Source: an uncultured Candidatus Saccharibacteria bacterium (GTDB lineage Bacteria > Patescibacteriota > Minisyncoccia > Phycocordibacterales > DATDWN01). From it: a stretch of DNA of 40,638 bases. Both the position numbers and the translations under genes were made by a program. This document shows positions 246-40,100 of the stretch, piece by piece (within the stretch, counting starts at the first letter, position 1; each line of letters starts with the position of its first letter). Location of the stretch: positions 1-40,638 of the forward strand of contig CAZQKP010000001.1 in assembly GCA_964594005.1 (NCBI GenBank), read 5' to 3'. A model generated the notes under the pieces. That model was not told the DNA's origin, searched no databases, and was given only the letters and a program-made list of their open reading frames with translations.

Positions 246-279
246 AACGTCTCCTTTGAAAGAACAGTTGAAATTTTAC

Positions 280-2006: not shown

Positions 2007-2012
2007 GTTTGT

Positions 2013-2320
2013 AGGAGGTTCCCTTTATGCAGGACTGAGGCCGGGACCCGTCCGATAAGCCATGCCGAGAGCGTGGGTCGGACGGAGGGTGCCCCTCCTG
2101 TTCACATAGAGCGTCGTTGGTCAGAAGAATCGGTTACTTTTCGGAAGGACGGTTCAAAGGAGTCGCAGATCATGTTGGACGAGTAGCCGCAATGCCGACA
2201 GCGATCGTCGGCTAGGCGGAGGGCGAAAGCCCACAGCACAAGGCATCGCGACATCAGCGCGCGTTGCCACACGGGTCCGACCGGGAGAGAGTTTCACTCT
2301 TTTCTCCCGGCCGGACCTTC
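2013..2320 (+). ncRNA. Candidate structured non-coding RNA of about 300 nt, class unknown
   Basis: A GC-rich island in AT-rich DNA, with no ORF beyond a 3-codon ATG-CAG-GAC-TGA. It follows the promoter at 1978-2006. Nested hairpin 2048-2055/2078-2085 (8 bp) encloses ccatgc/gcgtgg; gggc-GAAA-gccc tetraloop hairpin at 2221-2232; gccgac/gtcggc hairpin near 2196-2210. It ends in a strong stem at 2274-2317. Confidence 0.4.
2274..2317 (+). terminator. Strong GC-rich stem-loop followed by a T-rich tract
   Basis: ggtccg/ccggacc plus ccgggagag/ctcttttctcccgg pair into about 17 bp, followed by ttcattatttattc. It sits 4 nt from the stop of the convergent TrmB-like gene, so it may act in both directions. 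Confidence 0.5.
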
Positions 2321-8489: not shown

Positions 8490-8616
8490 CAACATTACTG
8501 TATTAATTAAATTATATCGAAACTTTATAACAGAGGTCAATATTAATTGCCCACAGAATGTAAACAAGCTATTTTGTCAAAAAATAAAGAGAAAATTCCT
8601 ATGTTATAATCGCCAA

Positions 8617-12975: not shown

Positions 12976-12993
12976 TTGTGATAAAATATAAAA

Positions 12994-15347: not shown

Positions 15348-17614
15348 TGAAAAAGGTTTTTTATCTTATTTTAATAGTTTTAGTGCTCATACCACTGTTT
15401 GTACCCCTCCACATAGCTTCTGCTGCCTGCTCACCCTGGGATTTTGGAGGTTGTATTGATTGGGCATTGACCAATATCGCCAATCTAATATTGGGTCTTC
15501 TCTCTTATTTAATGGGTTGGGCAGCTTTGTGGCTCAACTTTGTCTTGGACTGGACAATTGTGAGGATGAAAACAAATCTCGCTACATTAACTGGCATAAA
15601 TACGGCCTGGAAAGTTGTGAGGGATCTGATGAATGTTTTTTTTATTTTCCTACTTATTTACGAGGGTATAAAACTAATTATTAACTTGAACAGTCGAGAT
15701 GGAATCAAATCATTTATTACTGGAATTGTTTTAGCCTCAATTCTTATTAATTTCAGCCTTTTTTTCACCAAAGTAATCATAGATACTTCTAATATCGTGA
15801 CTATTGGATTTTATCAATCAATTCTAGATACAAATCGAGGAAAACAGGCGAGTTGTGATGCTCAAGGAAATTGTGGCACGGGTTATGGTTTGGCTGATCC
15901 TATTATGGGTGCGCTACATTTAACCAGCGCTTACGACGCAAAGGTTACTAATAGTTTGGGCGAAACATCAAGCTTTTTAATATCAGCGCTAGGTAACGCC
16001 CTCATAATTCTAGTTGCAGCTTTTGTTTTTTTTGCGGTTTCAATTGTATTCGCCGTTAGATACATGGTTTTGATTATTCTTATGATGCTATCCCCAGTAG
16101 CCTATATGGGTTTAGGACTACCTTTTATGAAAAAATATGCCAGTCAATGGTGGACTGCTTTCAATAGCCAAATTCTTTTTGCGCCTATTTTTATGATTTT
16201 AACTTGGATAAATATTACTCTAATGTACAGTCCGGGTTTTTTGACTACAGGTAGCTTCGCGGATGCCTTTGATAATAAAAACCCTGCTGGCGGAGGCGGC
16301 TTTAATCTTATTCTGAATTTTGCCATAATTATCGGCTTACTTATTGCCAGTTTAATTATTTCCAAAAAAACTGCGAGTCAGGGCAACAGCCTAATCGGTT
16401 CTGCAGTTGGTAATGCGACAAGTTTTGCGGGAGGCGCTTTGGTGGGGAGTACAGCAAGATTTGGCCGCGCAACTGTTGGTCGGGTCGGACAAGCACTTTC
16501 AGAGAGGGAGGGGCTTAAAGATGCCTCAACTAAAAGCGGAGTTCGGGGATTTATCGCCAGAAGAACGTTATCAGCAAGTAATAAGGCCGCCACATCTAGT
16601 TTTGATGCACGGGCTACAGATAGTTTTGGCAAATTGGCAAGTGCCACCGGTACTAATTTTGGCAAAGTGGACGCATCTAAACAGAACTTTAGAAAAATAA
16701 GAGAGGAGCAACAAAAGAAAGCGGAAGAAGAGGCTAAGAAGTACAAACCTTCTGACACCGCATATGCCGAAGCCAAAGAGAAAGATGAATTGGCTAAGGA
16801 GGAACTTAAAGAAAGAAAAGAAGAAGCCCAGAAAGCGGCGGATAGTGCTCAAAAAGCCTATGAGGCGGAATTAAATGAGGGCAGAACCTTAGACCAAATT
16901 GAAAAAGACCTCAAGGCAGCATTAGAAAAAGAGGAGAGTCATAAAAAATTTGGTATACCAAGTGACCCAGCTCTTGCTGCAGAGATAAATCGACTAAGAG
17001 CGGAATCCGAGACAAAGAAAACAACCCTCGCTTCCTTAGACAGGAACAAGAAAGAAACAAAATCAGCCGCCGAAAAACTTGAAAAAGACGAAAAGGAATT
17101 TAAGGAACAAGAAGAGAGAAAACTAAATGAAAAATACGCGGAAAGAGTTAATGCAGAAGCGGGAAGAAAGGGCCATGAAAACAGAGTGGCTTTGGAAGCG
17201 CAAAGAAAACTTGATGCTGACGACAGAAAATCTCCAGCAGAAAGAATGACAGTTGTTGAGAGAAAGAAATTGGAAGATCAAGTTAAAACTGGGGAGCACG
17301 ATACTAGGACAAACAAGGCTTGGCGATATGTGGCAAATACGGTGGGCCTTGTTACCAATGTGGCTGGGGTAACTAACATGCCAATGACCAAAAAAGATAG
17401 AGAGGCTTTGGCAAGAAAAGTAAGGGGAGTTGCCAAACAAAAGAACTCAAAAGATAAATTAGCTGAAGCGGTGAAGGATTATCAAAAAGATATCGACAAA
17501 GAATCAGGTGAAGCAGCGGCTGAAACAGCTGCCCCTGCTGCAGCGCCTGCACCGACCCCGGCCCCAGCCCCAGAACCTCCACCGTCACCACCACCAGCAG
17601 GAGGAGCTTCATAA
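15347..17614 (+). CDS. TrbL/VirB6-like polytopic membrane protein with a long K/E-rich coiled-coil and Pro-rich tail
   Basis: Signal/TM then about 8 hydrophobic helices (15347 to about 16380), typical of TrbL/VirB6 in size and topology. C-terminus (about 16685-17500) is EEQQKKAEEEAKK...-type charged helix, ending PAAAPAPTPAPAPEPPPSPPPAGGAS. Start taken at the ATG in TGATG (15345-15349); the track's ATG at 15323 is in frame. Confidence 0.55.
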   Translation: MKKVFYLILIVLVLIPLFVPLHIASAACSPWDFGGCIDWALTNIANLILGLLSYLMGWAALWLNFVLDWTIVRMKTNLATLTGINTAWKVVRDLMNVFFIFLLIYEGIKLIINLNSRDGIKSFITGIVLASILINFSLFFTKVIIDTSNIVTIGFYQSILDTNRGKQASCDAQGNCGTGYGLADPIMGALHLTSAYDAKVTNSLGETSSFLISALGNALIILVAAFVFFAVSIVFAVRYMVLIILMMLSPVAYMGLGLPFMKKYASQWWTAFNSQILFAPIFMILTWINITLMYSPGFLTTGSFADAFDNKNPAGGGGFNLILNFAIIIGLLIASLIISKKTASQGNSLIGSAVGNATSFAGGALVGSTARFGRATVGRVGQALSEREGLKDASTKSGVRGFIARRTLSASNKAATSSFDARATDSFGKLASATGTNFGKVDASKQNFRKIREEQQKKAEEEAKKYKPSDTAYAEAKEKDELAKEELKERKEEAQKAADSAQKAYEAELNEGRTLDQIEKDLKAALEKEESHKKFGIPSDPALAAEINRLRAESETKKTTLASLDRNKKETKSAAEKLEKDEKEFKEQEERKLNEKYAERVNAEAGRKGHENRVALEAQRKLDADDRKSPAERMTVVERKKLEDQVKTGEHDTRTNKAWRYVANTVGLVTNVAGVTNMPMTKKDREALARKVRGVAKQKNSKDKLAEAVKDYQKDIDKESGEAAAETAAPAAAPAPTPAPAPEPPPSPPPAGGAS

Positions 17615-17615
17615 T

Positions 17616-18281
17616 ATGAATGACGAAAATAAAATAGAAATACCAGATTACGTAAAAAAGCTACCACCGGAAGCCCAGGATTTTATATTTAGTTCTATCT
17701 GGGAAGATCGAACTAAGGAAGTTGCCCGAAAGTATTCGCTTAACGAAAGCCAGACTGAAAGCTTAATAAACACAGTTGCATTAGTTCTTATCGGAGTTGA
17801 AAATCCGGATGATCTCTACACAGATCTGTTGGAGGATTTAAAAACTTCTAAACTTTTAACTGAACAAATTATTTCTGAATTAGAGAAGAGAGTCTTCGAA
17901 TTTGGCGTAAAAATTATTTTGGACAACAAAAAACCAGAAAGCGATATCAAAGAAAAACCTGACACAACAATACCAGAGCTGAAGCCAAATCTACTACCTG
18001 AAACAGAAAAAGTAGCCAGCTCTTTTAAACCAATAAGTATTCCCAAGGAAGAAGTTGCTTCGGGCATAACTTATCCAGCCAAAAATGAAGAGACAGTACA
18101 ACAACCCCTAAAAGTCCCAGAAGTTAATATTGCCTCAGAAAAAGTTGAGACAAAACCAATAACCCCACCAACTATAGTGGAGACTAAACTTAAGGCAGTT
18201 ACCCCAAGTATTTCAGAAACACCTAGCTCAGATGCCCCCAAAAAATACACAGTTGATCCCTATCGCGAGCCAATAAACTAA
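17616..18281 (+). CDS. Hypothetical protein (T4SS-like cluster)
   Basis: ATG at 17616 lies about 11 nt after AGGAGG and 1 nt after the previous stop. The track's start at 17508 only adds the alternative reading of the upstream Pro-rich tail. No TM; Pro/Lys/Glu-rich C-terminus. Confidence 0.6.
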   Translation: MNDENKIEIPDYVKKLPPEAQDFIFSSIWEDRTKEVARKYSLNESQTESLINTVALVLIGVENPDDLYTDLLEDLKTSKLLTEQIISELEKRVFEFGVKIILDNKKPESDIKEKPDTTIPELKPNLLPETEKVASSFKPISIPKEEVASGITYPAKNEETVQQPLKVPEVNIASEKVETKPITPPTIVETKLKAVTPSISETPSSDAPKKYTVDPYREPIN

Positions 18282-18282
18282 A

Positions 18283-18717
18283 ATGAGATACCAAGTCCCT
18301 CAATTTATTGAAATAGAAGATAAGGTTATCGGACCATTTACCGTTAAACAGTTCGTTTACTTAGTAGGAGGTGGGGGTATGGCTTTTATTTTTTACAATT
18401 ACCTCAACTTATTTATAGCGATCCCGTTAATGGTTGGAGCTGTCGGATTGGGTCTCTCTTTAGCTTTTTATAAAATAAATAATAAACCGTTTATTGATTT
18501 TCTAGAGTCTGCTTTTATGTATTACACTAGAGGCAATCTCTATATCTGGCGAAAGGAGGTGAAAAAAATTGAACCCGCAAAAGAAAAGGCTGCCCAAGCT
18601 AATACTGTAACCGTTCCAAGGCTTTCTCAAAGCAAACTAAAGGAATTGTCTTGGTCTTTGGACATAAATGAAAATCTAAATCCAGTTACGAGTGAAAGCG
18701 GCAAGAGAACAAGCTAG
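18283..18717 (+). CDS. PrgI-family (VirB3-like) T4SS membrane protein
   Basis: MRYQVPQFIEIEDKVIGPFTVKQFVYLVGGGGMAFIFY followed by a second TM helix, which is the PrgI-family pattern; it lies just upstream of VirB4. Confidence 0.65.
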   Translation: MRYQVPQFIEIEDKVIGPFTVKQFVYLVGGGGMAFIFYNYLNLFIAIPLMVGAVGLGLSLAFYKINNKPFIDFLESAFMYYTRGNLYIWRKEVKKIEPAKEKAAQANTVTVPRLSQSKLKELSWSLDINENLNPVTSESGKRTS

Positions 18718-18738
18718 TTTTCGTGATATAATTTAAAT

Positions 18739-19389
18739 ATGGCAATCAGTTCCAAGGCAACTCAAGAGTTCGTTCCCATAAAAGAAGTCAAGGATGGCAT
18801 CATGATTTTGAAAAATGACTCCATGCGCGGGGTAGTTTTGGCTTCTTCTATCAACTTTTCTTTAAAATCGGACGACGAAAGAAACGCGATCATTTTACAA
18901 TTCCAAGATTTTTTAAACTCGCTCGATTTTCCGGTAGAAATTTCAATCGAATCTAGGCGCCTAGACATTAGACCCTATATTGCTCTCTTGGAAGGACGCT
19001 ATAAAGAACAGACCAATGACTTAATGAAAATACAGACCAGGGAATATATCGATTTTATTAAAAAATTTACGGAAAGTACCAGCATTATGACTAAAAGCTT
19101 TTTTATCATAGTGTCATACGATCCGGCACTAGTTAAACTTCAAGGACCTAATGCGGGCTTGAGTAAATTAAATATTTTTAAAAAAAAATCTGCCAATAAA
19201 CAACAAGAAGAAAAACAGGCAAATTTTGAGGAGAATCGTACACAGCTAGAGCAAAGAGTCTCGGTAGTTGAGCAAGGTCTTTCCCGTTGTGGTATTCGAG
19301 TTATTCGTTTGGGTACGGAAGAAGTGATTGAGTTGTTTTATAAAATATTTAATCCAGGGGACACAGAAAAACCAATTAAATTAAACTAA
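18739..19389 (+). CDS. Hypothetical protein resembling a free-standing VirB4/TraC N-terminal domain
   Basis: TQEFVPIKEVKDGIMILKNDSMRGVVLASSINFSLKSDDERNAIILQFQDFLNSLDFPVEISI follows the pattern of the N-terminal region of Gram-positive VirB4 homologues. TAATG overlap with virB4. Confidence 0.55.
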   Translation: MAISSKATQEFVPIKEVKDGIMILKNDSMRGVVLASSINFSLKSDDERNAIILQFQDFLNSLDFPVEISIESRRLDIRPYIALLEGRYKEQTNDLMKIQTREYIDFIKKFTESTSIMTKSFFIIVSYDPALVKLQGPNAGLSKLNIFKKKSANKQQEEKQANFEENRTQLEQRVSVVEQGLSRCGIRVIRLGTEEVIELFYKIFNPGDTEKPIKLN

Positions 19390-21203
19390 TGGCCTTACTC
19401 GATTTTTTAAAACCAAAAAAAGAAGAACCGATCTCAACTATTTTGCCGCAGGAGATTTATGACTCTAGCAGCCTAGAGTTAAAAGATGTTATTGCCCCCA
19501 GTGCACTTAAGGTTACTCCCAAAGAAATAAATTTAGGCGAAAAAATTGTGCGAGGATTTTTTGTTATTTCTTACCCAAGATACCTCTCGGAAAACTGGTT
19601 TGCGCCGATAATTAATCTGGACAAAATTTTTGATGTTTCTATTTTTGTTACTCCCATAGACTCCGCGGGCGCTTTAAAAACTTTCCAGAAAAAGGTAGCG
19701 GAGGTCCAAAGCCAGATTAATACCCGCGAAGCTAAGGGGCTTGTTCGAAATCCAATGCTGGATACTGCCTATCAAGACTTGGAGAGTCTACGTGATCAAC
19801 TGCAACAAGCCCAAGAGAAGCTTTTTGATGTCGGTCTATATATAAGTATCTACGCCGATAGTATGGAGGAACTGGATAAAATAGAGTCAGAAATAAAATC
19901 AATCTTGGAGGCAAAATTGGTTTACCTTAAGCCCGCTCTCTTTCAGCAAGAGCAATCTTTCCGCACATCAATTCCCTTGGGCACAGACGAACTTAAAGTT
20001 TATAGTAAATTAAACTCCTCACCCCTGTCACTTCTTTTTCCTTTTATTTCCTTCGACCTGACCTCGGATAAAGGAATTCTCTACGGCATCAATCGCCACA
20101 ATTCTTCTCTAGTTTTATTTGATCGCTTTTCCTTGGAGAATTACAACTCCATTACTTTTGCCAAGTCCGGTGCGGGCAAATCATTTTGCACCAAGCTAGA
20201 GATACTTCGTACACTTATGTTTGATACAGACGTTATTGTAATTGACCCAGAAAGAGAGTACGAATATCTAGCTGAAGCAGTGGGCGGCAGGTACTTCAAC
20301 ATTTCCCTTAATTCTGAACACCATATAAATCCTTTTGAACTGCCACACCCATCGGAAGACGAATCATTTTCTTCAGTCTTACGTACTAATATCATTAACT
20401 TAGTTGGTCTCTTTAGAATAATGATGGGCGGCTTAACACCTGAGGAAGACGCTATTATTGATCGCGCCATTTCAGAAACATACGCCCTAAAAGATATAAC
20501 TCCGGATTCTAATTTTGAGAATTTAGAGCCGCCTCTTATGTCCGATTTTGAATTAGTTCTCTCGGGTATGGAGGGGGGAGACTCTCTAGCACAAAGACTC
20601 TCCAAATACACTCGCGGCACTTGGGCTGGTTTTATTAATAAGCCATCCAATGTAGATATAAATAAAAAATTTATTGTTTTCTCTTTGCGCGATATGGAGG
20701 ATGAACTGAAGCCGATTGCTATGTATATTGTAATGCACTTTATCTGGAGTGCCATTAGAAAGAACTTAAAGAAAAGATTACTTGTGGTTGACGAGGCATG
20801 GTGGATGATGAAATCAGATGACACCGCTTCTTTCCTGTTATCTCTTGCCAAAAGAGGCCGAAAATATTATTTAGGGCTTGCAACAATTACTCAGGACGTA
20901 GATGATTTCATGAAGTCAAATTACGGCACGCCAATTATTACGAACTCTTCAATTCAAATTCTATTAAAGCAGTCACCAACGGTGATAGATAAACTACAAA
21001 CTGTCTTCAACTTAACCGATGAAGAAAAATACCTTCTCCTCGAGTCTGACGTGGGGGAGGGAATATTTTTTGCGGGCTTAAAACATGTGGCTATAAAAAT
21101 AATCCCATCCTACACCGAAGAACAAATCATTACCTCTGATCCATCCCAAGTTCTAGCTATTAAAGCGGCAAAAAGACAACTGGAAGAATCCCAAAATGGA
21201 TAA
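19389..21203 (+). CDS. virB4: VirB4/TraC-type T4SS ATPase
   Basis: Walker A FAKSGAGKSF, Walker B LLVVDEAWWMM, an ATITQDVDDF-type sensor region and 604 aa. The N-terminal domain has the VRGFFVISYPRYLSENWF pattern. Confidence 0.85.
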   Translation: MALLDFLKPKKEEPISTILPQEIYDSSSLELKDVIAPSALKVTPKEINLGEKIVRGFFVISYPRYLSENWFAPIINLDKIFDVSIFVTPIDSAGALKTFQKKVAEVQSQINTREAKGLVRNPMLDTAYQDLESLRDQLQQAQEKLFDVGLYISIYADSMEELDKIESEIKSILEAKLVYLKPALFQQEQSFRTSIPLGTDELKVYSKLNSSPLSLLFPFISFDLTSDKGILYGINRHNSSLVLFDRFSLENYNSITFAKSGAGKSFCTKLEILRTLMFDTDVIVIDPEREYEYLAEAVGGRYFNISLNSEHHINPFELPHPSEDESFSSVLRTNIINLVGLFRIMMGGLTPEEDAIIDRAISETYALKDITPDSNFENLEPPLMSDFELVLSGMEGGDSLAQRLSKYTRGTWAGFINKPSNVDINKKFIVFSLRDMEDELKPIAMYIVMHFIWSAIRKNLKKRLLVVDEAWWMMKSDDTASFLLSLAKRGRKYYLGLATITQDVDDFMKSNYGTPIITNSSIQILLKQSPTVIDKLQTVFNLTDEEKYLLLESDVGEGIFFAGLKHVAIKIIPSYTEEQIITSDPSQVLAIKAAKRQLEESQNG

Positions 21204-22026
21204 TGGAGAAGAAAATGGATCCAAAATAAGCTTAATGGAGTGGGGGCTAGTAATTGGTGCCTTATTCGTTTGTGATCTTTTACAAGCTGGCCTCGATTTA
21301 TTGGTTATTGGTGAATTTACAAATCCTTTTTTTGATTTAATTATTGGAATGAGTTTCGGTTTGTATCTCCAGATGAGAGGAGAAAGTCTAACTAAACCTT
21401 CGAGAGCTTTTGGATTACTTGGAACTTTTCTTTTGGAAATGGTTCCTCTAATTGATGACTTGCCATTATGGAGTCTAGATGGACTTTTTAATATGCTTGT
21501 CTCTAGGCCAGATATTCTAAATAAGGTTAGCATGGGCATACCTGGATCTGGAGTGGTAAATAAATTAATTATTCCAGCCAAGACAGAACCAAACAAACCC
21601 GCTCAAGAAAAAGCGGAAAGGCTACGCGAATTGCCTGCGAAGAATACAAATCCAGGCTTTAATAGTAAGGAAAACGCAGTTGCCGCGAGAGAAAGATTAA
21701 ACAACGTTACAGATAAATATAACTTGGATACAGATAAAAACAAAGAGCCGATAAATGTAAACGAACAAAACTTAAAAGTGGCTAAGGATAAAAATCAAAC
21801 TGTAGATGAACAAAATTGGGAAGCAGCTAGAAGAAAGAACCGACAAAAAACAGTAGAGGAAGAAAATTTGGAGGCGGCTAGAAACAAAAACTCGGGAGAG
21901 GTCTATAATTTGAAGGGGGACGAGGCAATAAGACTAAGAAATGAGAGGCTGGAAGTAGCTAGAAGATTGGGCCTGCACTCAAGCGGAACGTCTCAAGAGA
22001 CTTCGGATCTAGAAAAAGCAGCCTAG
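21196..22026 (+). CDS. Hypothetical membrane protein with a repetitive charged tail
   Basis: 3-4 hydrophobic helices in the first ~100 aa. The tail has three ~14-aa repeats: NEQNLKVAKDKNQT / DEQNWEAARRKNRQKT / EEENLEAARNKNSG (about 21760-21895). 8-nt overlap with virB4. Confidence 0.6.
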   Translation: MDNGEENGSKISLMEWGLVIGALFVCDLLQAGLDLLVIGEFTNPFFDLIIGMSFGLYLQMRGESLTKPSRAFGLLGTFLLEMVPLIDDLPLWSLDGLFNMLVSRPDILNKVSMGIPGSGVVNKLIIPAKTEPNKPAQEKAERLRELPAKNTNPGFNSKENAVAARERLNNVTDKYNLDTDKNKEPINVNEQNLKVAKDKNQTVDEQNWEAARRKNRQKTVEEENLEAARNKNSGEVYNLKGDEAIRLRNERLEVARRLGLHSSGTSQETSDLEKAA

Positions 22027-22075
22027 TGTGCATAATCCACGTTTAGATACAATTTGACGTGTTACAATTATAGAG

Positions 22076-23062
22076 ATGAAGTATGTTTTTTCGACCATAC
22101 TGGCCTTATCTTTATTGCCAGCAATAGGTTTTGCGCAAATACCGGGAGTTGATAATTCAGATTTAAATGTAGAGCTAATTCCCGAAAGTCCCCACCCCAA
22201 CGAAGTGGTTAACGTTAGATTAACCGACTACAGTATTGATCTGGATTCTTCCCGAATAATCTGGAAAATAAATGGGGTTGTAAAACAATCTGGCACGGGG
22301 AATAAAACCTTCAGTTTCACTGTGGGTGATTTAAACAGTCATACTATTCTGACTATCGATGTCTCTGCCGCTTCCGGCCAAAATCTAGAGAAAATTGTTG
22401 AGGTAAGGCCTTCGAGTGTAGATATTTTATGGCAATCAGAAAGTTTTACTCCGCCATTTTATCGCGGCAAGGCATTGTTTAGTTATGAAAACAAAATTAC
22501 TTTTATCGCAATTCCCCATATAAGTAGTGGTAGTGGCGAGATTCCAACCAAGAATTTAATCTATAAATGGGAGATGAATAGCAATGTGATAGATGATTCC
22601 TCGGGCTACGGCAAAAATACTTTCACCACTATTGGTTCCCTCATCGCACGGCCACTTGAGGTAACTGTAGAAGTTTCGTCTTTAGATGGGATTTTCTCAG
22701 GCAGAGGACATATTATTACCACACCTGTTGATCCTAAACTCTTGCTCTATCAGGACGATCCGATTTATGGTTTACAATTTCAAAAGGCTCTAAACAATAA
22801 TTTAAATTTGGGGGGAGAAGAAATAGAAGTTATGGGTATACCATTTTATTTTGGGATAAAAGATCTTAGTTCTCCATATATTTCTTTTAAATGGTCGATA
22901 AACGGAGTCCCAACTGATAATGATGTGAGTGCCAATACTCAAGTGTTTAGAAAAAAAGAGGGAACTAGCGGCACCTCCAACATCTCTCTTAGAGTTGAGG
23001 ACTCTCAAAAGATCCTGCAAGCTGCTACCAGTAATTTTAATTTAAATTTTAACAATGAGTAG
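22076..23062 (+). CDS. Hypothetical secreted protein
   Basis: Signal peptide MKYVFSTILALSLLPAIGFA/Q. Beta-rich composition with internally similar segments (IIWKINGVVKQSGTG... / ISFKWSINGVPTDND...). Confidence 0.65.
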   Translation: MKYVFSTILALSLLPAIGFAQIPGVDNSDLNVELIPESPHPNEVVNVRLTDYSIDLDSSRIIWKINGVVKQSGTGNKTFSFTVGDLNSHTILTIDVSAASGQNLEKIVEVRPSSVDILWQSESFTPPFYRGKALFSYENKITFIAIPHISSGSGEIPTKNLIYKWEMNSNVIDDSSGYGKNTFTTIGSLIARPLEVTVEVSSLDGIFSGRGHIITTPVDPKLLLYQDDPIYGLQFQKALNNNLNLGGEEIEVMGIPFYFGIKDLSSPYISFKWSINGVPTDNDVSANTQVFRKKEGTSGTSNISLRVEDSQKILQAATSNFNLNFNNE

Positions 23063-23921
23063 AAGAATTTTAAAATTAGCCTTGGTTCTTTTAACCTTAT
23101 TTGGTCTTCAATTTTCTTTGGCCTTAGCTCAAAGCCAACAAATTCAATACCAGGTTTTAGCGCCTCTAGACAACGAACCAGCCACAATAACACTTCCTCA
23201 ATACATACCCTTCATAATTAACTTGTCTATTGGTATAGCCGCAGTCATGGCCTTCGTCATGATTACTTTTGGGGGAATTACATACGCTACAACTGACGCC
23301 TTACAAAAAAAACAAGATGGTAGAAAATTTATTGAAAATGCGATTATTGGTTTACTTCTGGTTATAAGCGCCTGGGTTATTCTTAATACAATTAATCCTC
23401 AAACACTTGATTTTAGTTTTTTAAGTAAATTACCCACCGCGCAAGTCACAGCGCCCACAAATGTGATTCCTGGCACTCCCATGACCCCCGAGCAACTTGC
23501 TGATGATGCTAATGTAAGATCCATACTGACCTCCCAATCTGGTGGCCAAGTAGTGGTGGCTCTAGCTCCCTGTGCGAGTGGCCAAACTAAGGGTTGCACA
23601 AATGTAAATGGTTTGCCGGTAAATGCTATCGACGGTCTCACTCGCTTGTCTAAAGACTGCAATTGTCAGATTATCGTGACCGGTGGAACAGAAGGAGGTC
23701 ATGTATCTCACGGTCCCGGCAAACCCGTTGTGGATTTGAGATCTCAAAATAGTGCTTTAACTGCCTTGTTGAGTAAATTTGATTCAAGAGCAGCTAACCC
23801 GTTTTCTAAACTGGCATTTGGAGTCACCCTTAAGGATCGCACCCATGCTAATTTCTCATATGAGACTGCTGAAGACCCTAACTCAAGCGGAGCGCATTGG
23901 CATGTAAGCTTTGGCCCATAA
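23055..23921 (+). CDS. T4SS pilin-like (VirB2/TrbC-type) module fused to a putative LAS/M15-like zinc peptidase domain
   Basis: Signal peptide, then IPFIINLSIGIAAVMAFVMITFGGITYATTDALQKKQDGRKFIENAIIGLLLVISAWVILNTINP, a two-helix pilin pattern. The C-terminus has GGHVSHGPGKPVVDL (S-x-H-x-x-G-x-x-x-D-like) and SGAHWHVSF (WH motif). Confidence 0.6.
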   Translation: MSRRILKLALVLLTLFGLQFSLALAQSQQIQYQVLAPLDNEPATITLPQYIPFIINLSIGIAAVMAFVMITFGGITYATTDALQKKQDGRKFIENAIIGLLLVISAWVILNTINPQTLDFSFLSKLPTAQVTAPTNVIPGTPMTPEQLADDANVRSILTSQSGGQVVVALAPCASGQTKGCTNVNGLPVNAIDGLTRLSKDCNCQIIVTGGTEGGHVSHGPGKPVVDLRSQNSALTALLSKFDSRAANPFSKLAFGVTLKDRTHANFSYETAEDPNSSGAHWHVSFGP

Positions 23922-23922
23922 T

Positions 23923-25146
23923 ATGTCTCGTAAATCTGTCTTTATTTTAATATCTGCAATTCTAGGTTTATTTTTAATATGCTTGATTGCTTATTATTTT
24001 ATTCTTTTAGGGAATGGTGGAAGCACAAGCAACACTCCAAGTGTTTTTAAAAATTTTTTTCCATTTGGAGGAAACGATAATGTTACAGCCAATCCGCCAG
24101 GAACTACTACTAACCAAAATCCTCCCATAAACCCTCCGGCTGAAAATTTTACTCAAAAGCTTAGAGAATTATCCGCCGAACCAGTCTCAGGCGCTGGGAG
24201 TTTGGATCTAAAAGCTGGCACAATTGTGCGTTACATTGAAAAAGCAACTGGTCATATTTATGAGGTGGAAATGTTTTCTCCAAACAAGACCAGGATATCC
24301 AACACAACCCTACCGCTGGTTTATGATGCACAATGGGGCAATAAAAATAATTCCTTAATTGCCAGGTATTTAAAAGACGACAATGAAACAGTAGACACCT
24401 ATGGTTTAACCCTTAAAAACTCGACCAGTACAGATAGTACGGTCTCGGGCACCCCTTTTCCAAAGAATATTTCAGATGTTTCCGTGTTTGATACAAGTGT
24501 GTTTTATCTGGTAGTAACACCGGACAACTCTTCTGGGTTTGTTTCCACCTTTGCGGGAGGACAAAAGAAACAGATTTGGAACTCCCCAATTACTGAACTC
24601 AACTCTCAATTTGTGAACTCTAAAACAGTAGCCCTTAACACCAAACCTTACCCTGGCATTCCGGGTTATCTCTATTTAGTCGATACAGGCACAGGTGGGG
24701 TTAAAAAAGTTTTGGGTGATGTTAATGGTCTTTCTACTTTAGTTAGCCCGGACGTAGCCCAAATAATTTATTTAAGCCAAGATAACATTGCCAAAATGTC
24801 TATTTGGAGTTCCAAAAGTAAAGCCTCAACCGATATAAGCCCCGCTACATTCCCAGAAAAATGTGTCTGGAGTAAAAAAAATACACAATTTGTTTATTGC
24901 GCCGTGCCTAAAAGGATTATTGGCCCAAATACATTAATCAATTGGTATCAGGGTTTGGAAGAAGAAAGTGATGATATTTGGAAATATGATTTAAAAACCA
25001 ATACCTCCGCCATTATAGAAAATCTCTCCACAGACGCTCGAGTAGACATTGATGTGATAAAACCATTTCTCTCTCAAAATGAACAATACCTAGTGTTTAT
25101 GAATAAAATTGATAATAGCTTGTGGAGTTTGGATTTGACCAAATAG
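23923..25146 (+). CDS. Hypothetical membrane-anchored protein, probably beta-propeller-like
   Basis: TM anchor VFILISAILGLFLICLIAYYFILL, a Pro/Asn/Thr linker, then about 330 aa of beta-rich sequence. ATG at 23923 lies 1 nt after the previous stop. Confidence 0.65.
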   Translation: MSRKSVFILISAILGLFLICLIAYYFILLGNGGSTSNTPSVFKNFFPFGGNDNVTANPPGTTTNQNPPINPPAENFTQKLRELSAEPVSGAGSLDLKAGTIVRYIEKATGHIYEVEMFSPNKTRISNTTLPLVYDAQWGNKNNSLIARYLKDDNETVDTYGLTLKNSTSTDSTVSGTPFPKNISDVSVFDTSVFYLVVTPDNSSGFVSTFAGGQKKQIWNSPITELNSQFVNSKTVALNTKPYPGIPGYLYLVDTGTGGVKKVLGDVNGLSTLVSPDVAQIIYLSQDNIAKMSIWSSKSKASTDISPATFPEKCVWSKKNTQFVYCAVPKRIIGPNTLINWYQGLEEESDDIWKYDLKTNTSAIIENLSTDARVDIDVIKPFLSQNEQYLVFMNKIDNSLWSLDLTK

Positions 25147-25863
25147 TTACTCGACTAAAACAGCTGTGTGGTATTTTTTTCGAATATAATATTCTTGGGC
25201 AATTGCAAATATGTTACTGGTGATTAGATAGAGGGCAACTGCAGAGGAAATAGTATAAGCAATTAACGCCATAAAAAAGGGGAAGAAGTATTTCATCTGC
25301 ATGGACATTGCTCGGGCAAAGTCACCCTGTTCACCAGAGTTTTGGGTGGGGTTGGCAAGGCTAATTTGGAAGTAGGTGGATATGCCAGCGATAGCAGCCA
25401 AAATAATACTCTTTTGAGATATATTTATTAAATTTAGAAAGGCCATGTTAATTGAAGCTGGGGGAGAAACAAAAGAGTAAAGTAAGCCCAAGTTAATTTG
25501 GGGCAAACCAGAGCGAATAAAAACCCGATACAAGCCAATTAAAATTGGCAGCTGAATAATTAGAATCAGAAAACCTGCAAGGGGATTTATGCCACGCTCC
25601 TTGTAATATTCCATCGTAGCTCTAGCTTGTTCCTCCTTATTGTCCTTATATTTCTCTTTAATTTTAGCTAAATCTTTTTCAGTCGTTTTCATTTCGATCT
25701 GGGCTTTGGAAGCCTTGATTGAAAGTGGTAAAAGAATCACCTTAATAATAATAGTAAAGATTATTATGATTATTCCGGCGTCAAAAAAAGGCAGGATTTT
25801 CATTAAAACAATAAAACCGTTGTACAGGGGTTTGGAGATAAGTGCACTAAATATAGCCGACAT
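25147..25863 (-). CDS. yidC: YidC/Oxa1-family membrane protein insertase (short form)
   Basis: LYNGFIVLMKILPFFDAGIIIIIFTIIIKVILLPLSIKASKAQ and ...NPLAGFLILIIQLPILIGLY are conserved YidC core motifs. Canonical position next to rnpA. Confidence 0.9.
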   Translation of the reverse strand: MSAIFSALISKPLYNGFIVLMKILPFFDAGIIIIIFTIIIKVILLPLSIKASKAQIEMKTTEKDLAKIKEKYKDNKEEQARATMEYYKERGINPLAGFLILIIQLPILIGLYRVFIRSGLPQINLGLLYSFVSPPASINMAFLNLINISQKSIILAAIAGISTYFQISLANPTQNSGEQGDFARAMSMQMKYFFPFFMALIAYTISSAVALYLITSNIFAIAQEYYIRKKYHTAVLVE

Positions 25864-25868
25864 GGGCT

Positions 25869-26210
25869 TTATCTTATCACAGCTCCGGAATTAAGTAACT
25901 CCAGAATTTCCTCTTTGGATTTATTAAAAGTAAGTGGCTCACTATTTTTTTTAAATTGAAAAAATAAAAAGTATCCGGGCTTAACCTTATTCTCTAAACT
26001 AGTTATCACCTCGTAGCCCCATCTTCTTAATTTATTCCGTTTTACTGCGGAGTTTGAAATCTTTTTGGAAACAGAAAAAGAAAACTGGCTCGGCTTTTCC
26101 ACTTTTTGCCTGCTTAAATACAAAAGAAGGTGTTTGGAGTTAATTTTTTTATTATGAGAAAGAATATAAGGAAAAATTTCCCTGTCTATTCTTCTTTTTT
26201 TGGATAGCAT
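25869..26210 (-). CDS. rnpA: Ribonuclease P protein component
   Basis: SFSVSKKISNSAVKRNKLRRWGYEVI matches the RNase P protein RNR-type motif; it lies between rpmH and yidC. Confidence 0.88.
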   Translation of the reverse strand: MLSKKRRIDREIFPYILSHNKKINSKHLLLYLSRQKVEKPSQFSFSVSKKISNSAVKRNKLRRWGYEVITSLENKVKPGYFLFFQFKKNSEPLTFNKSKEEILELLNSGAVIR

Positions 26211-26218: not shown

Positions 26219-26362
26219 TTATCTACCTGAGACCGAGAGCTTTTTTCGGCCCTTTCTCCTGCGTCGCAATAGGGTATTTTGACCGTACTTGGATTTGGAT
26301 CTAACCAAAAAACCATGCGTTTTTGCTCTTTTTCTTTTCTTGGGATTATAAGTTTTTGACAT
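26219..26362 (-). CDS. rpmH: 50S ribosomal protein L34 (not in the ORF track; 47 aa)
   Basis: The reverse strand translates to [47 protein letters not shown], then TAA. Classic L34 in the canonical rpmH-rnpA-yidC order. Confidence 0.93.
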
Positions 26363-26480
26363 ATGTTATAAAATTCATCTAATTTTCACTGTAAACAATT
26401 TATACACATATTATTAACATAAGAGTAGCTTTCCGGCAACTATCTACTTTATTTATTATAGATATAATTCTTAGAACAAT
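26363..26480. promoter_or_regulatory. Divergent rpmH / dnaA control region, possibly part of oriC
   Basis: 118-nt AT-rich spacer between divergent rpmH and dnaA. One near-consensus DnaA box, TTATACACA, at 26400-26408. Confidence 0.4.
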
Positions 26481-27047
26481 ATGGATAATAAAAAACTCTG
26501 GGACAGCGTTTTGGTCGAAATGGAACTTTCTCTCTCAAAGCCTAATTTCAACACCTGGTTTAAGGATACAGCAATTGTAAGACTTGATGGTAGCACTGTT
26601 TATCTGGGTGTACCTAATACGTTTGTTCAGGACTGGCTGTCCAGTAAATTCCACAACTCTATTCTAAAAGTATTAAGATCGCTCGCCGGCAATGTCCAGT
26701 CACTACAGTATGTAATCCATAAAGAAGATGGAGGGCATCATGTTGAGCCCAAAATATTACCTATTACCAGAGAGCTGCCGATTGCCGATACATATATTAA
26801 CAAAGAAGACGGACTCAACCCCCGCTACACCTTTGAAACATTTATTGTGGGACCGTTCAATGAATTTGCCTATGCTGCAAGCCAAGCAGTTATAAACAAA
26901 CCAGGTATTGTTTATAATCCACTCTTTATTTATGGTGGCACTGGACATGGCAAGACCCACCTAATCCAAGCTGTGGGAAATTTTCTAAAAAACGCGAGCG
27001 GCCGAAAGGTTTTTTACACCACTTCTGAAAAATTTGCCCATAAGTAA
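26481..27047 (+). CDS. dnaA: DnaA, N-terminal segment (domains I-II and Walker A), ending at an in-frame TAA
   Basis: LWDSVLVEMELSLSKPNFNTWF..., NPRYTFETFIVG, NPLFIYGGTGHGKTHL (Walker A). Stops at 27045-27047 inside the conserved SEKF..(F/Y).NAI.. segment. Confidence 0.85.
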   Translation: MDNKKLWDSVLVEMELSLSKPNFNTWFKDTAIVRLDGSTVYLGVPNTFVQDWLSSKFHNSILKVLRSLAGNVQSLQYVIHKEDGGHHVEPKILPITRELPIADTYINKEDGLNPRYTFETFIVGPFNEFAYAASQAVINKPGIVYNPLFIYGGTGHGKTHLIQAVGNFLKNASGRKVFYTTSEKFAHK

Positions 27048-27116
27048 AAAAATGCAATCCAACTTAATAAACCCAATCTTTTTAAAGGAAAATAACGCAA
27101 ATACGATGTTTTAATT

Positions 27117-27815
27117 ATGGATGATATCCAATTTTTCTCTGGCAAGGCCAAGGTGCAGGAGGAATTATTCCATCTTTTTAACCACCTCTATGACAACAAT
27201 AAGCAAATTATCTTTTCCTCGGACAAACACCCGGGATTAATTCAAGACCTAGAGGAAAGACTGAAATCTCGTTTTAGTGCTGGCATGGTAATTGACATTC
27301 CGGCGCCAGACAACGAGTCCCGTGCCGCAATAATAAGATCTAAATCAACCAATTCTGCCTTTCCACCATCGAAAGAAACTATTGATTACCTAGCTTATTC
27401 AGTGGTCGGCAACATTAGAGAGCTAGAAGGCATAATAAATTTCATTAATGCCCAAGCTCAACTAAGAAACAGGGAAGTTTCTATAACTGAAATAAAAAAT
27501 TATGTTAAAAATAATGCGCGACCCAAAAAACTTGTCTCACCCAAGGAGGTGGTCAAAACCGTGGCAGATTTTTATAACATTGAGGAACAACTGATTTATG
27601 ACAAAACCAGAAAAAAAGAAATTATTAAGCCGCGTCAAATAATTATGTACATTCTGCGAGAAGACTTTAACATTTCTTACCCCGCGATTGGTGAGAAGTT
27701 GGGAGGTAGAGACCACACTACCGTTATGCACTCCTGCGAAAAAATAAAAAATGATATGAAAGCGGACGAAGCTTTAATTCAAGAGATCAATCAGTTACGC
27801 TCTGTCTTTGTGTAA
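27117..27815 (+). CDS. dnaA: DnaA, C-terminal segment (Walker B, sensors, domain IV), in the same frame as 26481-27047
   Basis: (VLI)MDDIQFFSGKAKVQEELFHLFN (Walker B), IIFSSDKHP, RLKSRFSAGMVIDIPAPD, and domain IV IIMYILREDFNISYPAIGEKLGGRDHTTVMHSCEKI. 27117-26481 = 636, which is divisible by 3. Confidence 0.85.
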   Translation: MDDIQFFSGKAKVQEELFHLFNHLYDNNKQIIFSSDKHPGLIQDLEERLKSRFSAGMVIDIPAPDNESRAAIIRSKSTNSAFPPSKETIDYLAYSVVGNIRELEGIINFINAQAQLRNREVSITEIKNYVKNNARPKKLVSPKEVVKTVADFYNIEEQLIYDKTRKKEIIKPRQIIMYILREDFNISYPAIGEKLGGRDHTTVMHSCEKIKNDMKADEALIQEINQLRSVFV

Positions 27816-28032
27816 AAACTTCTGTATAACTTGTTAATTCAATAAAAAAAAATGTGAATAAAGAAATAAAACCTGGGGAAGAAAAATACAAAAATGAAGT
27901 TGTTATGAAGCTGTCCACACCAAAACGGAATAAAAAATTGCCAAAAAACAAACTAGATTATGAAAATTTTATGAACTATCCCCATATCCACATCCCTAAT
28001 AGTGCTTTTGTTTTAAATAAAAAATAAATACT
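27816..28032. promoter_or_regulatory. dnaA-dnaN intergenic DnaA-box cluster (candidate oriC)
   Basis: 217-nt AT-rich spacer with TGTGAATAA (27853-27861, 1 mismatch), CTGTCCACA (27911-27919, 2 mismatches), CTATCCCCA (27976-27984, 2 mismatches) and ATATCCACA (27984-27992, 1 mismatch), compared with TTATCCACA. Confidence 0.5.
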
Positions 28033-31567: not shown

Positions 31568-31617
31568 TTTCGTATTCTATCACAATTATGCTAGAGTAAT
31601 AATACCTAAAAATCACT

Positions 31618-34191: not shown

Positions 34192-35604
34192 ATGCCTCAG
34201 TATAAAATGACAATTGGCTTGGAGATCCATGCCGAGCTAAACACAAAAAGTAAAATGTTTTGTGGTTGCCAGAATGCACCTCTTATCAAAACACCCAATT
34301 TAAATGTTTGCCCAATCTGTCTGGGACATCCTGGGACATTGCCAACTATAAATAAAGAAGCTGTAAAAAAAGTAATTATGTTAGGGCTAGCTCTGGGTGG
34401 CAAGATAGCAGATCTAACCTACTTTGATCGAAAGAATTATTTTTATCCTGACATTCCAAAGGGTTACCAGATAAGCCAGTATAAAAACCCTCTTGTTTCA
34501 GGGGGAGAATTAAATGGAGTAAAAATTACTAGGGTTCATTTAGAAGAAGATACGGCTAGATCTACCCACGAAGGGCTTGATTCCAGTTTGGTTGATTTTA
34601 ACCGCGCAGGAGTACCTCTTATGGAATTGGTTACAGAACCTGTCATGCATTCTTCGGAAGAAGTCATAAATTTTGGGAGAGAACTTCAACTACTATTGCA
34701 GTATTTGGGTATTTCGGAAGCCAACATGGAAAAGGGTGAGATGAGGGTAGAAGTTAATATCTCAGTTTCTCCGGATCAAAATTTTGGTACAAAAGTCGAA
34801 GTAAAAAATATTAATTCATTTAAAGCGGCGGGTAGAGCAATTGAGTATGAATTCAAAAGGCAGGTGGAGGTTTTAGAAAAAGGCGAAAAAGTAGTTCAGG
34901 AAACCAGAGGGTTTGACGAGAATAAGGGAGTGACTTTAAGCCAGAGATCTAAGGAGGATGCGCATGATTATAGGTACTTTCCAGAACCAGATTTAACTAA
35001 ACTCAAGATAAGTGAAATAAAGGACTTTGATTCAGATAAATTACGAAAAGAACTAAAAGAATTGCCTCAACAAAAAAGAGACAGATTAAAAAAATACGGC
35101 GTGAAGGATTCAGACATTGAAGTTTATGTGACTAACAGAGCGGTAGGGGAGTACTTTGAAGAGTTCAATAAATTAAGTAAACCGGAGACATTACAGCTTG
35201 GTTCAAACTACATTACTTCATCCATTCTAGGTCTATCTAAAGAAGTAGGTCAGGACTTTTCACCGGGTCAAATTACTCCAGACCGATTACAAAAAATAAT
35301 GGAGATGATTCTCAAGGGAGATCTATCCTCTACAAATGCAAAAACAATTTTGACTATCGTCTTTAAAGAAGGGGGTGATCCGGAGGGGATTGCTAAAAAT
35401 AAAAATCTAATTCTAAAAAACGACCCAGAAGAATTTAGAAAAATAGTAACAGATATTATTGAGGGTAACCCAAAAGTCGTAGAAGAATTCAAATCAGGTA
35501 AAGAATCAGTCTTTCAATTTTTTGTTGGTCAAGCCATGAAAGAAACAAAAGGTCAGGCCAATCCTGAAATATTAAAATCAATTATTCTTGAATTACTAAA
35601 ATAA
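34192..35604 (+). CDS. gatB: Asp/Glu-tRNA(Asn/Gln) amidotransferase subunit B
   Basis: IGLEIHAELNTKSKMFCGC, CPICLGHPGTLP, YFYPD(I)PKGYQISQ and RVHLEEDTA motifs. Confidence 0.93.
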   Translation: MPQYKMTIGLEIHAELNTKSKMFCGCQNAPLIKTPNLNVCPICLGHPGTLPTINKEAVKKVIMLGLALGGKIADLTYFDRKNYFYPDIPKGYQISQYKNPLVSGGELNGVKITRVHLEEDTARSTHEGLDSSLVDFNRAGVPLMELVTEPVMHSSEEVINFGRELQLLLQYLGISEANMEKGEMRVEVNISVSPDQNFGTKVEVKNINSFKAAGRAIEYEFKRQVEVLEKGEKVVQETRGFDENKGVTLSQRSKEDAHDYRYFPEPDLTKLKISEIKDFDSDKLRKELKELPQQKRDRLKKYGVKDSDIEVYVTNRAVGEYFEEFNKLSKPETLQLGSNYITSSILGLSKEVGQDFSPGQITPDRLQKIMEMILKGDLSSTNAKTILTIVFKEGGDPEGIAKNKNLILKNDPEEFRKIVTDIIEGNPKVVEEFKSGKESVFQFFVGQAMKETKGQANPEILKSIILELLK

Positions 35605-37120: not shown

Positions 37121-40100
37121 ATGGGTTCTGACTTATTTTTTGACAGCAAGAAATATATTCCAGCCAAAGAAGCAAGTGCGCTTACCGGCTACTCCAAGGA
37201 TTACATCGGACAGCTTTGCCGAAATAAAAAAGTCTTAGCAAAAAGAGTTGGTCACACTTGGTATGTTTGTGAAGAGTCAATCCGCGAATATAAGGATTCT
37301 CCAACCTCTTATGATTTTTCTAAGAATTTTTATGGTAAGTTAACTCAGGATATTTCTACTGGTGCACAAACAAGACAAGAGTATAAGCCAATCAAACTAG
37401 AGTTTCCAGAGAAAAAGCTTTTTCCAAAGACGTCCCAATTTATTCATGAATTTTTGTTTGCTTATGATTTCAGCCTAGGAGCGAAGATTTTACCCATTAC
37501 TCTAGCTCTTATTTTTACTCTTGGCCTTGTTTCCCTAAAGGACAGAGTGTTTAGTTTCCGAGAGGGGGTGAGGGAAGTTAAAAACTCTTTTAACCAGGTT
37601 TCTAGCAATTTTTCCGCTAATGGCGTAACCATTGCAGATGTCTCAGAGAAGATAAACACTTCACCATATGACCTTTACAATTCAACGGATGGACTTCTGG
37701 ATTCATATGCGGGCAAACTTTCTGGCACCTATCTTTCTTTGGGGAATGTGTTAAACACTGTCAGCTTTTCTTTTGTAAATCAAACCTTCTTAGCTCTAAA
37801 AAATCCGCCAGCATATATTTTGGGTACACTTGAAAAACTTTCGCTAAGCGATAAAAAATTTACTGACAAAACTATTTCCGGTATAACTTCTTCCCTATCA
37901 ACTAATAGCACAAAAGTTTTAGCCTTTGTCTCCGATACATTGGGCGGTGCATCTTATGCAAATAATTATTTTTTGGATAGAACAAAAAATTTAACTGCTG
38001 CAGTTGCAACAGCAGCAAGTGATGAATTAAATCCTGTTGACCATTCCGGTTTAGTTGTTTATCGCACTATAAATAATTTTTTCCAAAATTCAATTTATTT
38101 ACCGCTAGCGAGCTTGTTTAATAGTTCTCCAAATATTGTTAACACAACTTATGTTGCTACAACTCAAAGCCAAACAAAAAATATTCCAAAAGTTGTTGCG
38201 CAAAATACAACTTCCTCGCAGCCAACTAGAATTGTAAATACAACCAATGTAGTTGAAAGAATAATTGAAAGACCGGCAGACTATGCCGTAACTAAAACAG
38301 AATTAGAAGCAAGACTTCAGGAATTCAATAACAGCATCATGTCTAAGTTCTACTCCCTCTCGACTGGGAGTGGTGGCTCGGTCACAAATATTTACCAGGA
38401 AATTGCCGGAAGTCAAAGAATCGACCAGCTAAGCGGAACAGTCATCACAAATCCATCAATTTCTGGAGGTTCAATTAACAACACTGCGGTAAATGCGACG
38501 AGTTTGTCAGTTTCCAACACAAGTACTTCCACTTTTGCCGGTGGTATCGCAGTCACAGGCGGTTGCGTTTCTGTTAACGGTACTTGTCTCGGTACTGGTG
38601 GAGGTGGAGGTGGTACACCAGGAGGGAATAATACTGATGTGCAATTTAATAATGGCGGAACATTGGGTGGTTCGGATAATTTTGTTTTTGATAACACCAA
38701 CGGTCGTGTTGGAATTGGTACCACTTCACCATACGCACCACTTTCTGTTTCGGGTAAAGTAGTGGCAGATAATTTTGTAGCAACTTCTACCACCGCAACT
38801 TCAACTTTTTCGGGAGGCTTAAGTATAATCGGAGGACTTGATTTAAACTCCGGATATATTTTTGGTGGCGGACTTTCTTCTTGTTCGGGAATTGCAGATA
38901 AATTAATTTGGAATTCTACAACTGGAAAATTTGGTTGTGGTACAGACGCGGGGGCGGGTGGTGGAATTACTAACCTGGGTTCAGGTTACGCATCCACAAC
39001 TGGATCAACAATTGCATTTTCTACAACCACTACATCATTCAATGGATTAACTTTTGGTCAGAACATTGTTCCAACAGCTTCTGCTCTAACATTTACCCCA
39101 ACAGTTTCTGGCACGCTAACAGTTCCTGGTGGTGGTACAGGCTGGTCGAACATTCAAGCAGGAACTGTTCTATTAGGTAACGGTAGTGGTTCTCTGTCGA
39201 CAACATCAGCCGGAATAAACGGCCAAGTTCTTGCACTTGTTTCTGGCACGCCAACTTGGGTTGCGACTACAACTGCTGGCACAGGTCTTTCTTACAATGG
39301 AACTTCCTTTAACGTAAACACAACTCAAAATATTTCTAATCTTTCAAATCTTTCTTCAAACGGAGTAGTTTACACAGCTGGCGGAAATGGCACACTAAAT
39401 ACACAAGGAACTTCTACTCCGACCATCGGAGCATCACTTTCTTACTCGGGCACGGTCGGTTATTTCTTGGGAGGTTCATCTGGCACACTTTCACTTAACA
39501 CCGGGAATGCCAACAATTGGACAGCACTCCAAACTTTTCTTAACTCATCTTCAACTCTTCTTTCGGCCTACACCGCTTACTTTGGTTCATCTGGTACAAC
39601 TACAATAACTTCAACTGGGGCAATTGGCATTGGCACATCCTCCCCGTATGCTCCACTCTCCGTAGTCGGCCAAATAGTCGCTTCCTACTTTACAGCCACC
39701 ACTACCGCAACTTCAACCTTTCCAACTCTGCTTGCTACGAATGCAACTACATCCAGGTTAGCTATAACTGGCATAACGGGTGCACTTCTTAAAACAGATT
39801 CAAATGGAAATATAATTCCTGCTACAGCTGGATCTGACTATGCAAATTTTACTTTCCCATTTACAGTAAATACTGGTTACAACTCTACTTCCACAGCTAT
39901 TGGATTTAATGGTCTTTTCTCAACTGCGTCATCCACTTTCTCATCCAATCTCTATCTTTCCAATCTTTCTCAAGGTTACACGTATTTGGGTTCTAATGGT
40001 CTAGTCCAAACAGTTTCGACTTCTACAATAGCAGCACAAGTATTTCCATTTACATCTAACTCGGGTTACAACTCAACCTCTACGACTCTTGGATTGACCG

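Follow-up and report, generated by a model that had tools for sequence, protein, structure and literature searches.

DnaA is essential in nearly all bacteria; the gene has been lost in some insect endosymbionts, and some cyanobacteria replicate independently of DnaA. Unusual ways of reading a message are also known: in the Gracilibacteria and Absconditabacteria UGA codes for glycine (code 25), and gene 60 of phage T4 is translated by bypassing over a 50-nt gap. Here we describe a bacterial dnaA gene that is interrupted by two in-frame TAA codons. It is located on contig CAZQKP010000001.1 of assembly GCA_964594005.1, which was analyzed over its complete length of 40,638 nt; this whole stretch is called the window in the following. 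The two TAA codons are most likely part of one localized lesion in an otherwise ordinary, conserved dnaA and not a decoding device. We infer from the assembled sequence, with a probability of about 0.5, that this lesion is an error in the consensus of one contig, at a place with thin support, and not a true allele.

The locus resembles read-through, reassignment and bypassing systems in that an essential gene, conserved otherwise, contains in-frame stops. There is even a loose likeness to T4 gene 60 in that the two dnaA stops are 48 nt apart, compared with the 50-nt gap of the phage gene. It differs from these systems in that UAA is the predominant genuine stop codon here, that no relative shares the stops, and that the window contains neither a stimulatory structure at the stops nor any tRNA. 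Furthermore, the sequence between the dnaA stops is normal coding sequence while the residues flanking them are damaged. The window could also be compared with reduced genomes that have lost dnaA, since it would represent a small-genome bacterium with an inactivated gene. However, in those genomes dnaA is absent or thoroughly decayed, whereas here all but 55 nt of it is under purifying selection and the DnaA boxes persist.

A substitution patch in an otherwise conserved dnaA

The open reading frames (ORFs) on both sides of the interruption had been placed in one frame in the earlier note, with TAA codons appearing on straight-through reading. Translation confirmed both statements: the two ORFs are offset by 636 nt (3 x 212), and the in-frame stops occupy 27045-27047 and 27093-27095, 15 codons apart. 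Reading through them gives SEKFAHK, stop, KNAIQLNKPNLFKGK, stop, RKYDVLIMDDIQFF. In the N-terminal piece Pfam detects DnaA_N and positions 1-77 of the 162 positions of the Bac_DnaA profile; in the C-terminal piece it detects Bac_DnaA positions 103-162 and Bac_DnaA_C. Taken together, the fragments carry the three DnaA domains in canonical order. The protein also matches the DnaA structure in PDB entry 8BTG with E = 3e-102. In common with known bacterial DnaA (structures 8BTG, 2Z4R and 1L8Q/3R8F), it has conserved Walker A and Walker B motifs and a conserved domain IV. An uninterrupted frame with a complete AAA+ module and a conserved initiator-specific motif (ISM) is, however, not present in the dnaA of the window.

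The closest DnaA protein (P0001) is 91% identical at the amino acid level, while the DNA of the two genes is only 78% identical; because of this difference dnaA must have been under strong purifying selection over nearly all of its history. Many DnaA proteins of the Paceibacteria/Zambryskibacteria type follow at 80-82% identity. By its closest DnaA proteins, the source of the window would be a metagenome-assembled genome (MAG) of a Paceibacteria-type member of the Candidate Phyla Radiation (CPR; Patescibacteria).

An alignment with 120 relatives shows what has been lost at the two stops. The first TAA falls into a column of Y (79 relatives), L (30) or F (11) and the second into a column of Y (119) or F (1), as expected from the earlier description of a conserved hydrophobic/aromatic position and a conserved tyrosine. 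Each stop is, as was also claimed, one substitution away from a sense codon; the syntenic relative L001 has TTA and TAT at these sites. The view that the gene is otherwise intact and free of other decay did not survive the comparison. Next to the stops are four radical substitutions, Q187H, E188K, V190K and E203G, and this cluster, which had been overlooked, changes the interpretation of the locus.

Only 11 of the 444 positions of the window DnaA carry a residue that is never seen in the 120 relatives, and 6 of these 11 are within codons 187-205: Q187H, E188K, [Y/L/F]189stop, [V/I/L]190K, E203G and Y205stop. The probability that 6 of 11 fall within 19 codons by chance is 1.6e-4 (scan statistic). 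The columns of Q187, E188 and E203 are invariant in 120/120 relatives, and column 190, which is K in the window, is always V, I or L. At this site the window reads FAHK, stop, KNAIQLNKPNLFKGK, stop, RKY, the closest relative FAQELVNAIQINKPNLFKEKYRKY and most others F[SA]QEYVNA[IL]QLNKPNFFKEKYRKY. The corresponding codons in L001 are CAA GAG TTA GTT at the first sub-cluster of changes and GAA AAA TAT at the second. The 37 nt which separate the two sub-clusters (NAIQLNKPNLFK) are normal DnaA coding sequence. They include a leucine, L200, that is common only to the window and the sister protein P0001; the tract is therefore native and not foreign sequence. Outside the patch there are 14 window-specific and 5 sister-specific amino acid changes, all of them conservative (p = 0.064). 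On this alignment the anomaly is one 55-nt substitution patch rather than two isolated stop codons.

Several simple explanations for the patch were tried and rejected. Compensating frameshifts as well as an inverted segment between repeat arms are ruled out, because the 12 codons between the stops read as normal frame-0 DnaA. A donor copy of the patch, as would be needed for gene conversion or for a template like that of a diversity-generating retroelement, was not found in the window within 3 mismatches, and the base changes fit neither the adenine-specific mutagenesis of such retroelements nor the signature of a deaminase. The 55-nt span equals a common assembler k-mer size; this was treated as a coincidence and was not used as evidence.

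The surroundings of the patch are well preserved. The gene order is a cluster resembling a type IV secretion system (T4SS), yidC, rnpA and rpmH, followed by dnaA, dnaN, a gene for an 85-aa protein and genes for a penicillin-binding protein, an aminoacyl-tRNA synthetase, obg and gatB. It is common to five relatives over the stretch that each locus covers. From this position the dnaA of the window is the chromosomal initiator gene at its canonical place. The window contains 8 copies of the DnaA-box consensus TTATNCACA compared with 1.8 expected, a number reached in 0 of 100 shuffles. The 22 other proteins of the syntenic relative each align to the window in one match without interruption. A scan of the columns that are invariant in 3-5 relatives revealed no other stop and no comparable patch in ten neighboring genes (~3,860 codons, or ~4,300 with dnaA). 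Milder clusters of changes in GatB and in the aminoacyl-tRNA synthetase were considered as second patches and dismissed as ordinary divergence in variable segments; GatB was checked against 118 relatives. By these comparisons the lesion has no second example within 40 kb.

Origin of the patch

The Logan assembly of SRR12313479, a dataset in which the organism is present, provides a second, independent assembly of the same species with 99.9% identity to the window. Two of its contigs overlap the window with five differences in total. All five are synonymous, which has a probability of about 5e-4 if they were random errors; hence both assemblies are generally accurate and represent slightly different strains. 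The differences are located at 24978, 26999, 34236-34237 and 35737. The one at 34236-34237 is an adjacent GC/AT dinucleotide change in gatB that extends over two codons (GAG CTA vs GAA TTA). The one at 26999 is only 42 nt upstream of the patch; the window has C and Logan has T (AGC/AGT, both Ser).

The Logan contig L009, which enters dnaA from upstream, has its last base at window position 27009, 32 nt short of the first aberrant base. The only other assembly of the same species thus ends before the patch and leaves it uncorroborated. A graph break just upstream of the patch, as is seen in Logan, is what one would expect from thin coverage or an unresolved bubble. No repeat or shared sequence feature that would explain the Logan breaks was found at them. 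Further searches for the locus were negative. Among Logan-derived proteins none is equal to either DnaA fragment, and the protein database contains no near-identical full-length DnaA, nor a 'repaired' version with L189 or Y189. A search for contigs of the same species in the genome contig collection returned nothing but a chance match of 29 nt in a dnaA of Campbellbacteria, and a search of the metagenome collection by the pattern of the linker peptide returned none. The literature search yielded nothing relevant on dnaA pseudogenes in Patescibacteria and no mention of SRR12313479.

A consensus error would arise if read support at this spot were thin or ambiguous, such that an error-rich stretch entered the consensus during assembly. 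The outcome would be 7-8 substitutions without indels over roughly the length of one k-mer or read tail, while the real gene of the organism would encode an intact DnaA with Q-E-[L/Y]-V ... E-K-Y at the patch positions. We give this explanation the most weight because of the extreme, substitution-only density of changes within 55 nt, because there is no decay elsewhere in the gene, because the DnaA-dependent origin context is intact and because the independent assembly does not span the site. The resemblance to known consensus errors in MAGs is close: the patch consists of substitutions only, is about one k-mer or read tail long, is single in a 40-kb contig and is not spanned by the second assembler. 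Gradual decay of a pseudogene is disfavored since it would scatter changes along the gene, whereas here they are clustered. Of the four explanations offered in the earlier note, a strain-level or assembly artefact and a recent pseudogenization are thus supported; read-through or suppression and a two-piece DnaA are undercut by the results below.

Some observations speak against a consensus error. The remainder of the contig looks highly accurate, as judged from the five synonymous differences, and a dense patch of errors is an outlier in it; typical MAG consensus errors differ from the window in this respect. In addition, sub-cluster 1 has the modest signature of a real mutational mechanism, with complementarity to a nearby sequence rising from 6/12 to 11/12. 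The proximity of the L009 break to the patch could be a coincidence, with a chance of ~5% given that Logan contigs are only ~2.2 kb long. Finally, the evidence at the patch is that of assembled contigs.

These observations keep alive the explanation that the patch is real, because the contig is generally accurate and the signature of a template switch is partly present. One complex multi-nucleotide event would then have created a very recent loss-of-function allele of dnaA, either fixed or segregating; with synteny and DnaA boxes of the origin fully preserved, such a lesion would have effectively zero age. We consider this the main rival explanation, but a less likely one. The event could be a quasi-palindrome template switch, in which 27109-27120 templated sub-cluster 1, plus further changes. 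The assembled haplotype would carry the allele, perhaps together with an intact allele in the same population, and the product would be the 188-aa N-terminal fragment, with no functional initiator from the window copy. As in known quasi-palindrome mutations, adjacent substitutions make one arm more complementary to an inverted sequence close by: five derived bases make the left arm 11/12 complementary to the right arm. A match of this quality occurs in 5 of 243 alternative mutant states (2%, or 3.2% when weighted by composition), on the assumption that the ancestral codon 189 was TTA or TAY. The end of L009 before the patch could likewise result from a complex bubble between two haplotypes, and the slight, non-significant excess of window-specific changes outside the patch points in the same direction.

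A template switch would account for only part of the patch, and here the likeness to quasi-palindrome mutations ends. One arm position, G27044, was left unconverted, there is no nearby template for sub-cluster 2 (27088, 27095), and the statistical support of 2-3% is modest. Independent later hits confined to ~50 nt, with none in the remainder of the 1.3 kb, are improbable. The intact DnaA boxes and origin synteny also argue against a defective allele of a gene on which nearly all bacteria depend. Moreover, a null allele must dominate the population in order to be assembled, and no second assembly shows it.

Possible decoding of the two UAA codons

The patch covers the ISM, the segment between Walker A and Walker B that binds single-stranded DNA (ssDNA). 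The residue numbering of the Bacillus subtilis DnaA structure 8BTG coincides with that of the window. In B. subtilis the residues N187, I190, I193, R202 and E228 capture the ssDNA of the DnaA-trio, and an alanine at any of these positions causes a severe growth defect (PMC10721633). Both positions of the window that align with the ssDNA contacts N187 and I190 are changed. Read-through of both stops would therefore still give a protein with damage at important residues.

This result bears directly on programmed read-through, suppression or ribosome hopping, by which the two UAA codons would be passed and a full-length or nearly full-length DnaA would be made. A suppressor tRNA could be responsible, or peptidyl-tRNA-Lys could hop from the Lys codon before a stop to a downstream AAA; perhaps such a device would keep the level of the initiator low. 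It is true that a Lys codon (AAG, AAA) precedes each stop, that AAA follows within 1-2 codons, and that the remainder of dnaA is intact and conserved. However, this A-rich gene has many Lys codons, and the pattern flanking the stops is expected by chance. The second stop is followed by C, and in Escherichia coli termination at UAA-C is comparatively weak. On the other hand TAA terminates 20 of the 32 tabulated ORFs and is the commonest terminator in the window. The alignment with relatives, a comparison suggested in the earlier note, does not support a conserved recoding site; in 0 of the 120 is there a stop at either site. The product would bear H187, K188, K190 and G203, of which two positions are those aligned with the B. 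subtilis ssDNA contacts. These four radical, never-seen substitutions lie within 1-2 codons of the stops, which is not what purifying selection on the flanking codons would leave. Since radical changes at invariant ISM positions should not be tolerated, functional read-through is disfavored, and we regard it as highly improbable.

The searches for elements of a recoding device are in line with this. No tRNA or Rfam element, including a suppressor tRNA, was found in the window. A stimulatory structure at the stops was not detected either; the fold of the region (z = +1.08) is less stable than that of shuffled sequence and also than that of the 'repaired' sequence. A scan of 241 million metagenome records for a recurrence of the TAA at Y205, with the degenerate pattern F-K-x-K-TAA-R-K-Y-D-V, recovered no DnaA and only one unrelated, microsatellite-rich contig.

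The two fragments might instead be made separately and reassemble, with the 188-aa piece contributing domains I-II and Walker A and the 232-aa piece everything from Walker B through domain IV. In favor of this, recognizable DnaA domains are present in each of the two long, open ORFs, and the C-terminal ORF starts at a Met (27117). This Met, however, is the conserved M of LIMDD (Walker B) in intact relatives and not a newly evolved start. Residues 189-212 would be lost from both pieces; these are the ISM helices for ssDNA capture and the beta-strand leading into Walker B. There is no promoter-like site just upstream of 27117. The test for a Shine-Dalgarno sequence is uninformative for the C-terminal ORF because only 2 of the 29 genes in the window have one. 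None of the relatives has a split gene, and both fragments form singleton clusters among about 15 billion proteins. A two-piece DnaA is accordingly a very remote prospect. Together, these results argue strongly against programmed read-through or a designed split.

A genome-wide reassignment of TAA to Tyr or Leu would agree with the location of both codons in Tyr/Leu/Phe columns. Relatives, however, have TAT, TAC or TTA at these sites, and the hypothesis is refuted by the remaining genes: the 20 ORFs ending on TAA do so at the lengths expected from their orthologs, and there is no in-frame TAA in any of the 22 other orthologous genes. Its probability is practically nil.

There remains the case that the patch is both real and fixed in a living population of Paceibacteria. 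A CPR bacterium would then replicate without functional DnaA, or it would make DnaA by low-level read-through or tRNA-Lys hopping; either route would throttle the initiator in a slow-growing episymbiont. We find this very unlikely. Stops that are real and serve a function would make this dnaA the first gene of a bacterial replication initiator with UAA read-through or bypass, or would be evidence of DnaA-independent replication in the CPR. The evidence instead favors corruption of one 55-nt tract of a single MAG contig. Before recoding is proposed for an essential gene of a MAG because of an in-frame stop, the surroundings of the stop should be examined for a cluster of further abnormal substitutions, and the site should be compared with a second assembly or with the reads.

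Genomic context and contig ends

The features of the dnaA locus and the overlapping contigs of the second assembly are collected in Table 1.

Table 1. Position and properties of the dnaA gene, its aberrant patch, neighboring elements and Logan contigs in the window.
Feature	Position	Strand	Description
Chromosomal dnaA	26481-27815	+	445 codons including terminal stop; two in-frame TAA; basis: translation
N-terminal ORF, 188 aa	26481-27047	+	DnaA domain I, linker, Walker A; ends at first TAA; singleton cluster P0241, NCBI only
C-terminal ORF, 232 aa	27117-27815	+	Remainder of AAA+ and DNA-binding domain IV; singleton cluster P0242
Aberrant patch	27041-27095	+	55 nt, all 7-8 abnormal base substitutions, no indel
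Sub-cluster 1, codons 187-190	27039-27050	+	CAT AAG TAA AAA (H K stop K); relatives Q E [Y/L/F] [V/I/L]; contains first stop
Sub-cluster 2, codons 203-205	27087-27095	+	GGA AAA TAA (G K stop); relatives E K Y; contains second stop
Inverted repeat, left arm CCATAAGTAAAA	27038-27049	+	Overlaps sub-cluster 1; 11/12 complementary to right arm
Inverted repeat, right arm TTTTAATTATGG	27109-27120	+	Codes for conserved V-L-I-M-D; possible template
DnaA box TTATACACA	26400-26408	+	rpmH-dnaA intergenic region
DnaA box TTATTCACA	27853-27861	-	dnaA-dnaN intergenic region
dnaN, 365 aa	28033-29130	+	Intact; 86% identity to L001 ortholog in a single high-scoring segment pair; exact match P0121
yidC	25147-25863	-	Intact; Pfam 60KD_IMP; protein identical in Logan contig
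rnpA	25869-26210	-	Intact; Pfam Ribonuclease_P; protein identical in Logan contig
rpmH	26219-26362	-	Intact; basis: translation; protein identical in Logan contig
Logan contig L009	24748-27009		2 mismatches
Logan contig L008	33661-35848		3 mismatches

The eight DnaA boxes start at 6311, 22027, 26400, 27853, 28305, 32472, 33140 and 37057. They are scattered over 30 kb and include no tight oriC cluster; the origin is not pinpointed by them.

The T4SS-like cluster at 15323-25146 (TrbL_3, PrgI, a TraC-like protein, a TraG-type P-loop ATPase and a T4SS pilin) adjoins the yidC-rnpA-rpmH/dnaA block. This placement is kept in the relatives whose loci reach far enough upstream (L001, L005, L006 and L007); L002 reaches the pilin gene only. 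In L007 the TraG-like ATPase contains an intein with a LAGLIDADG endonuclease.

Besides the scarcity of Shine-Dalgarno cores in front of genes (present in the 2 of 29 mentioned above), many genes of the window have an extended -10-like box, TGNTATAAT/GATAAAAT, which ends 5-10 nt before the start codon. Examples are found at 8595-8616, 12972-12993, 18717-18738, 26459-26480 and 31568-31589. This arrangement suggests leaderless mRNAs or mRNAs with very short leaders in the lineage of the window.

The first ~2.3 kb of the window (1-2300) contain no ORF with a Pfam hit. The GC content is 76% in 1-200, where a minus-strand frame with collagen-like GPx repeats is cut off by the contig start. It is ~54% over 400-1800, compared with ~37% in the rest of the contig, and an island of 23% GC follows at 1800-2000. 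An Rfam search of 1-2300 gave no credible hit. For the minus strand of 401-1000 the predicted fold is far more stable than that of shuffled sequence (z = -4.85, 0/100 shuffles). The region could be a large structured RNA without an Rfam family, or foreign or chimeric DNA at the contig end. Beside this GC-rich, ORF-free region are genes for a protein with an NYN domain (RNase-like; 3662-4213) and for a TrmB-family helix-turn-helix regulator (2322-3074).

At the other end, 37121-40638 encodes a giant, repetitive Ser/Thr/Gly-rich protein of the surface type; its frame, open over at least 1,172 codons, is cut off by the contig end. At the same position L006 has a gene for 7,479 aa and L001 one for 2,077 aa. 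Repetitive genes are thus present at both contig ends, as is expected of a short-read assembly.

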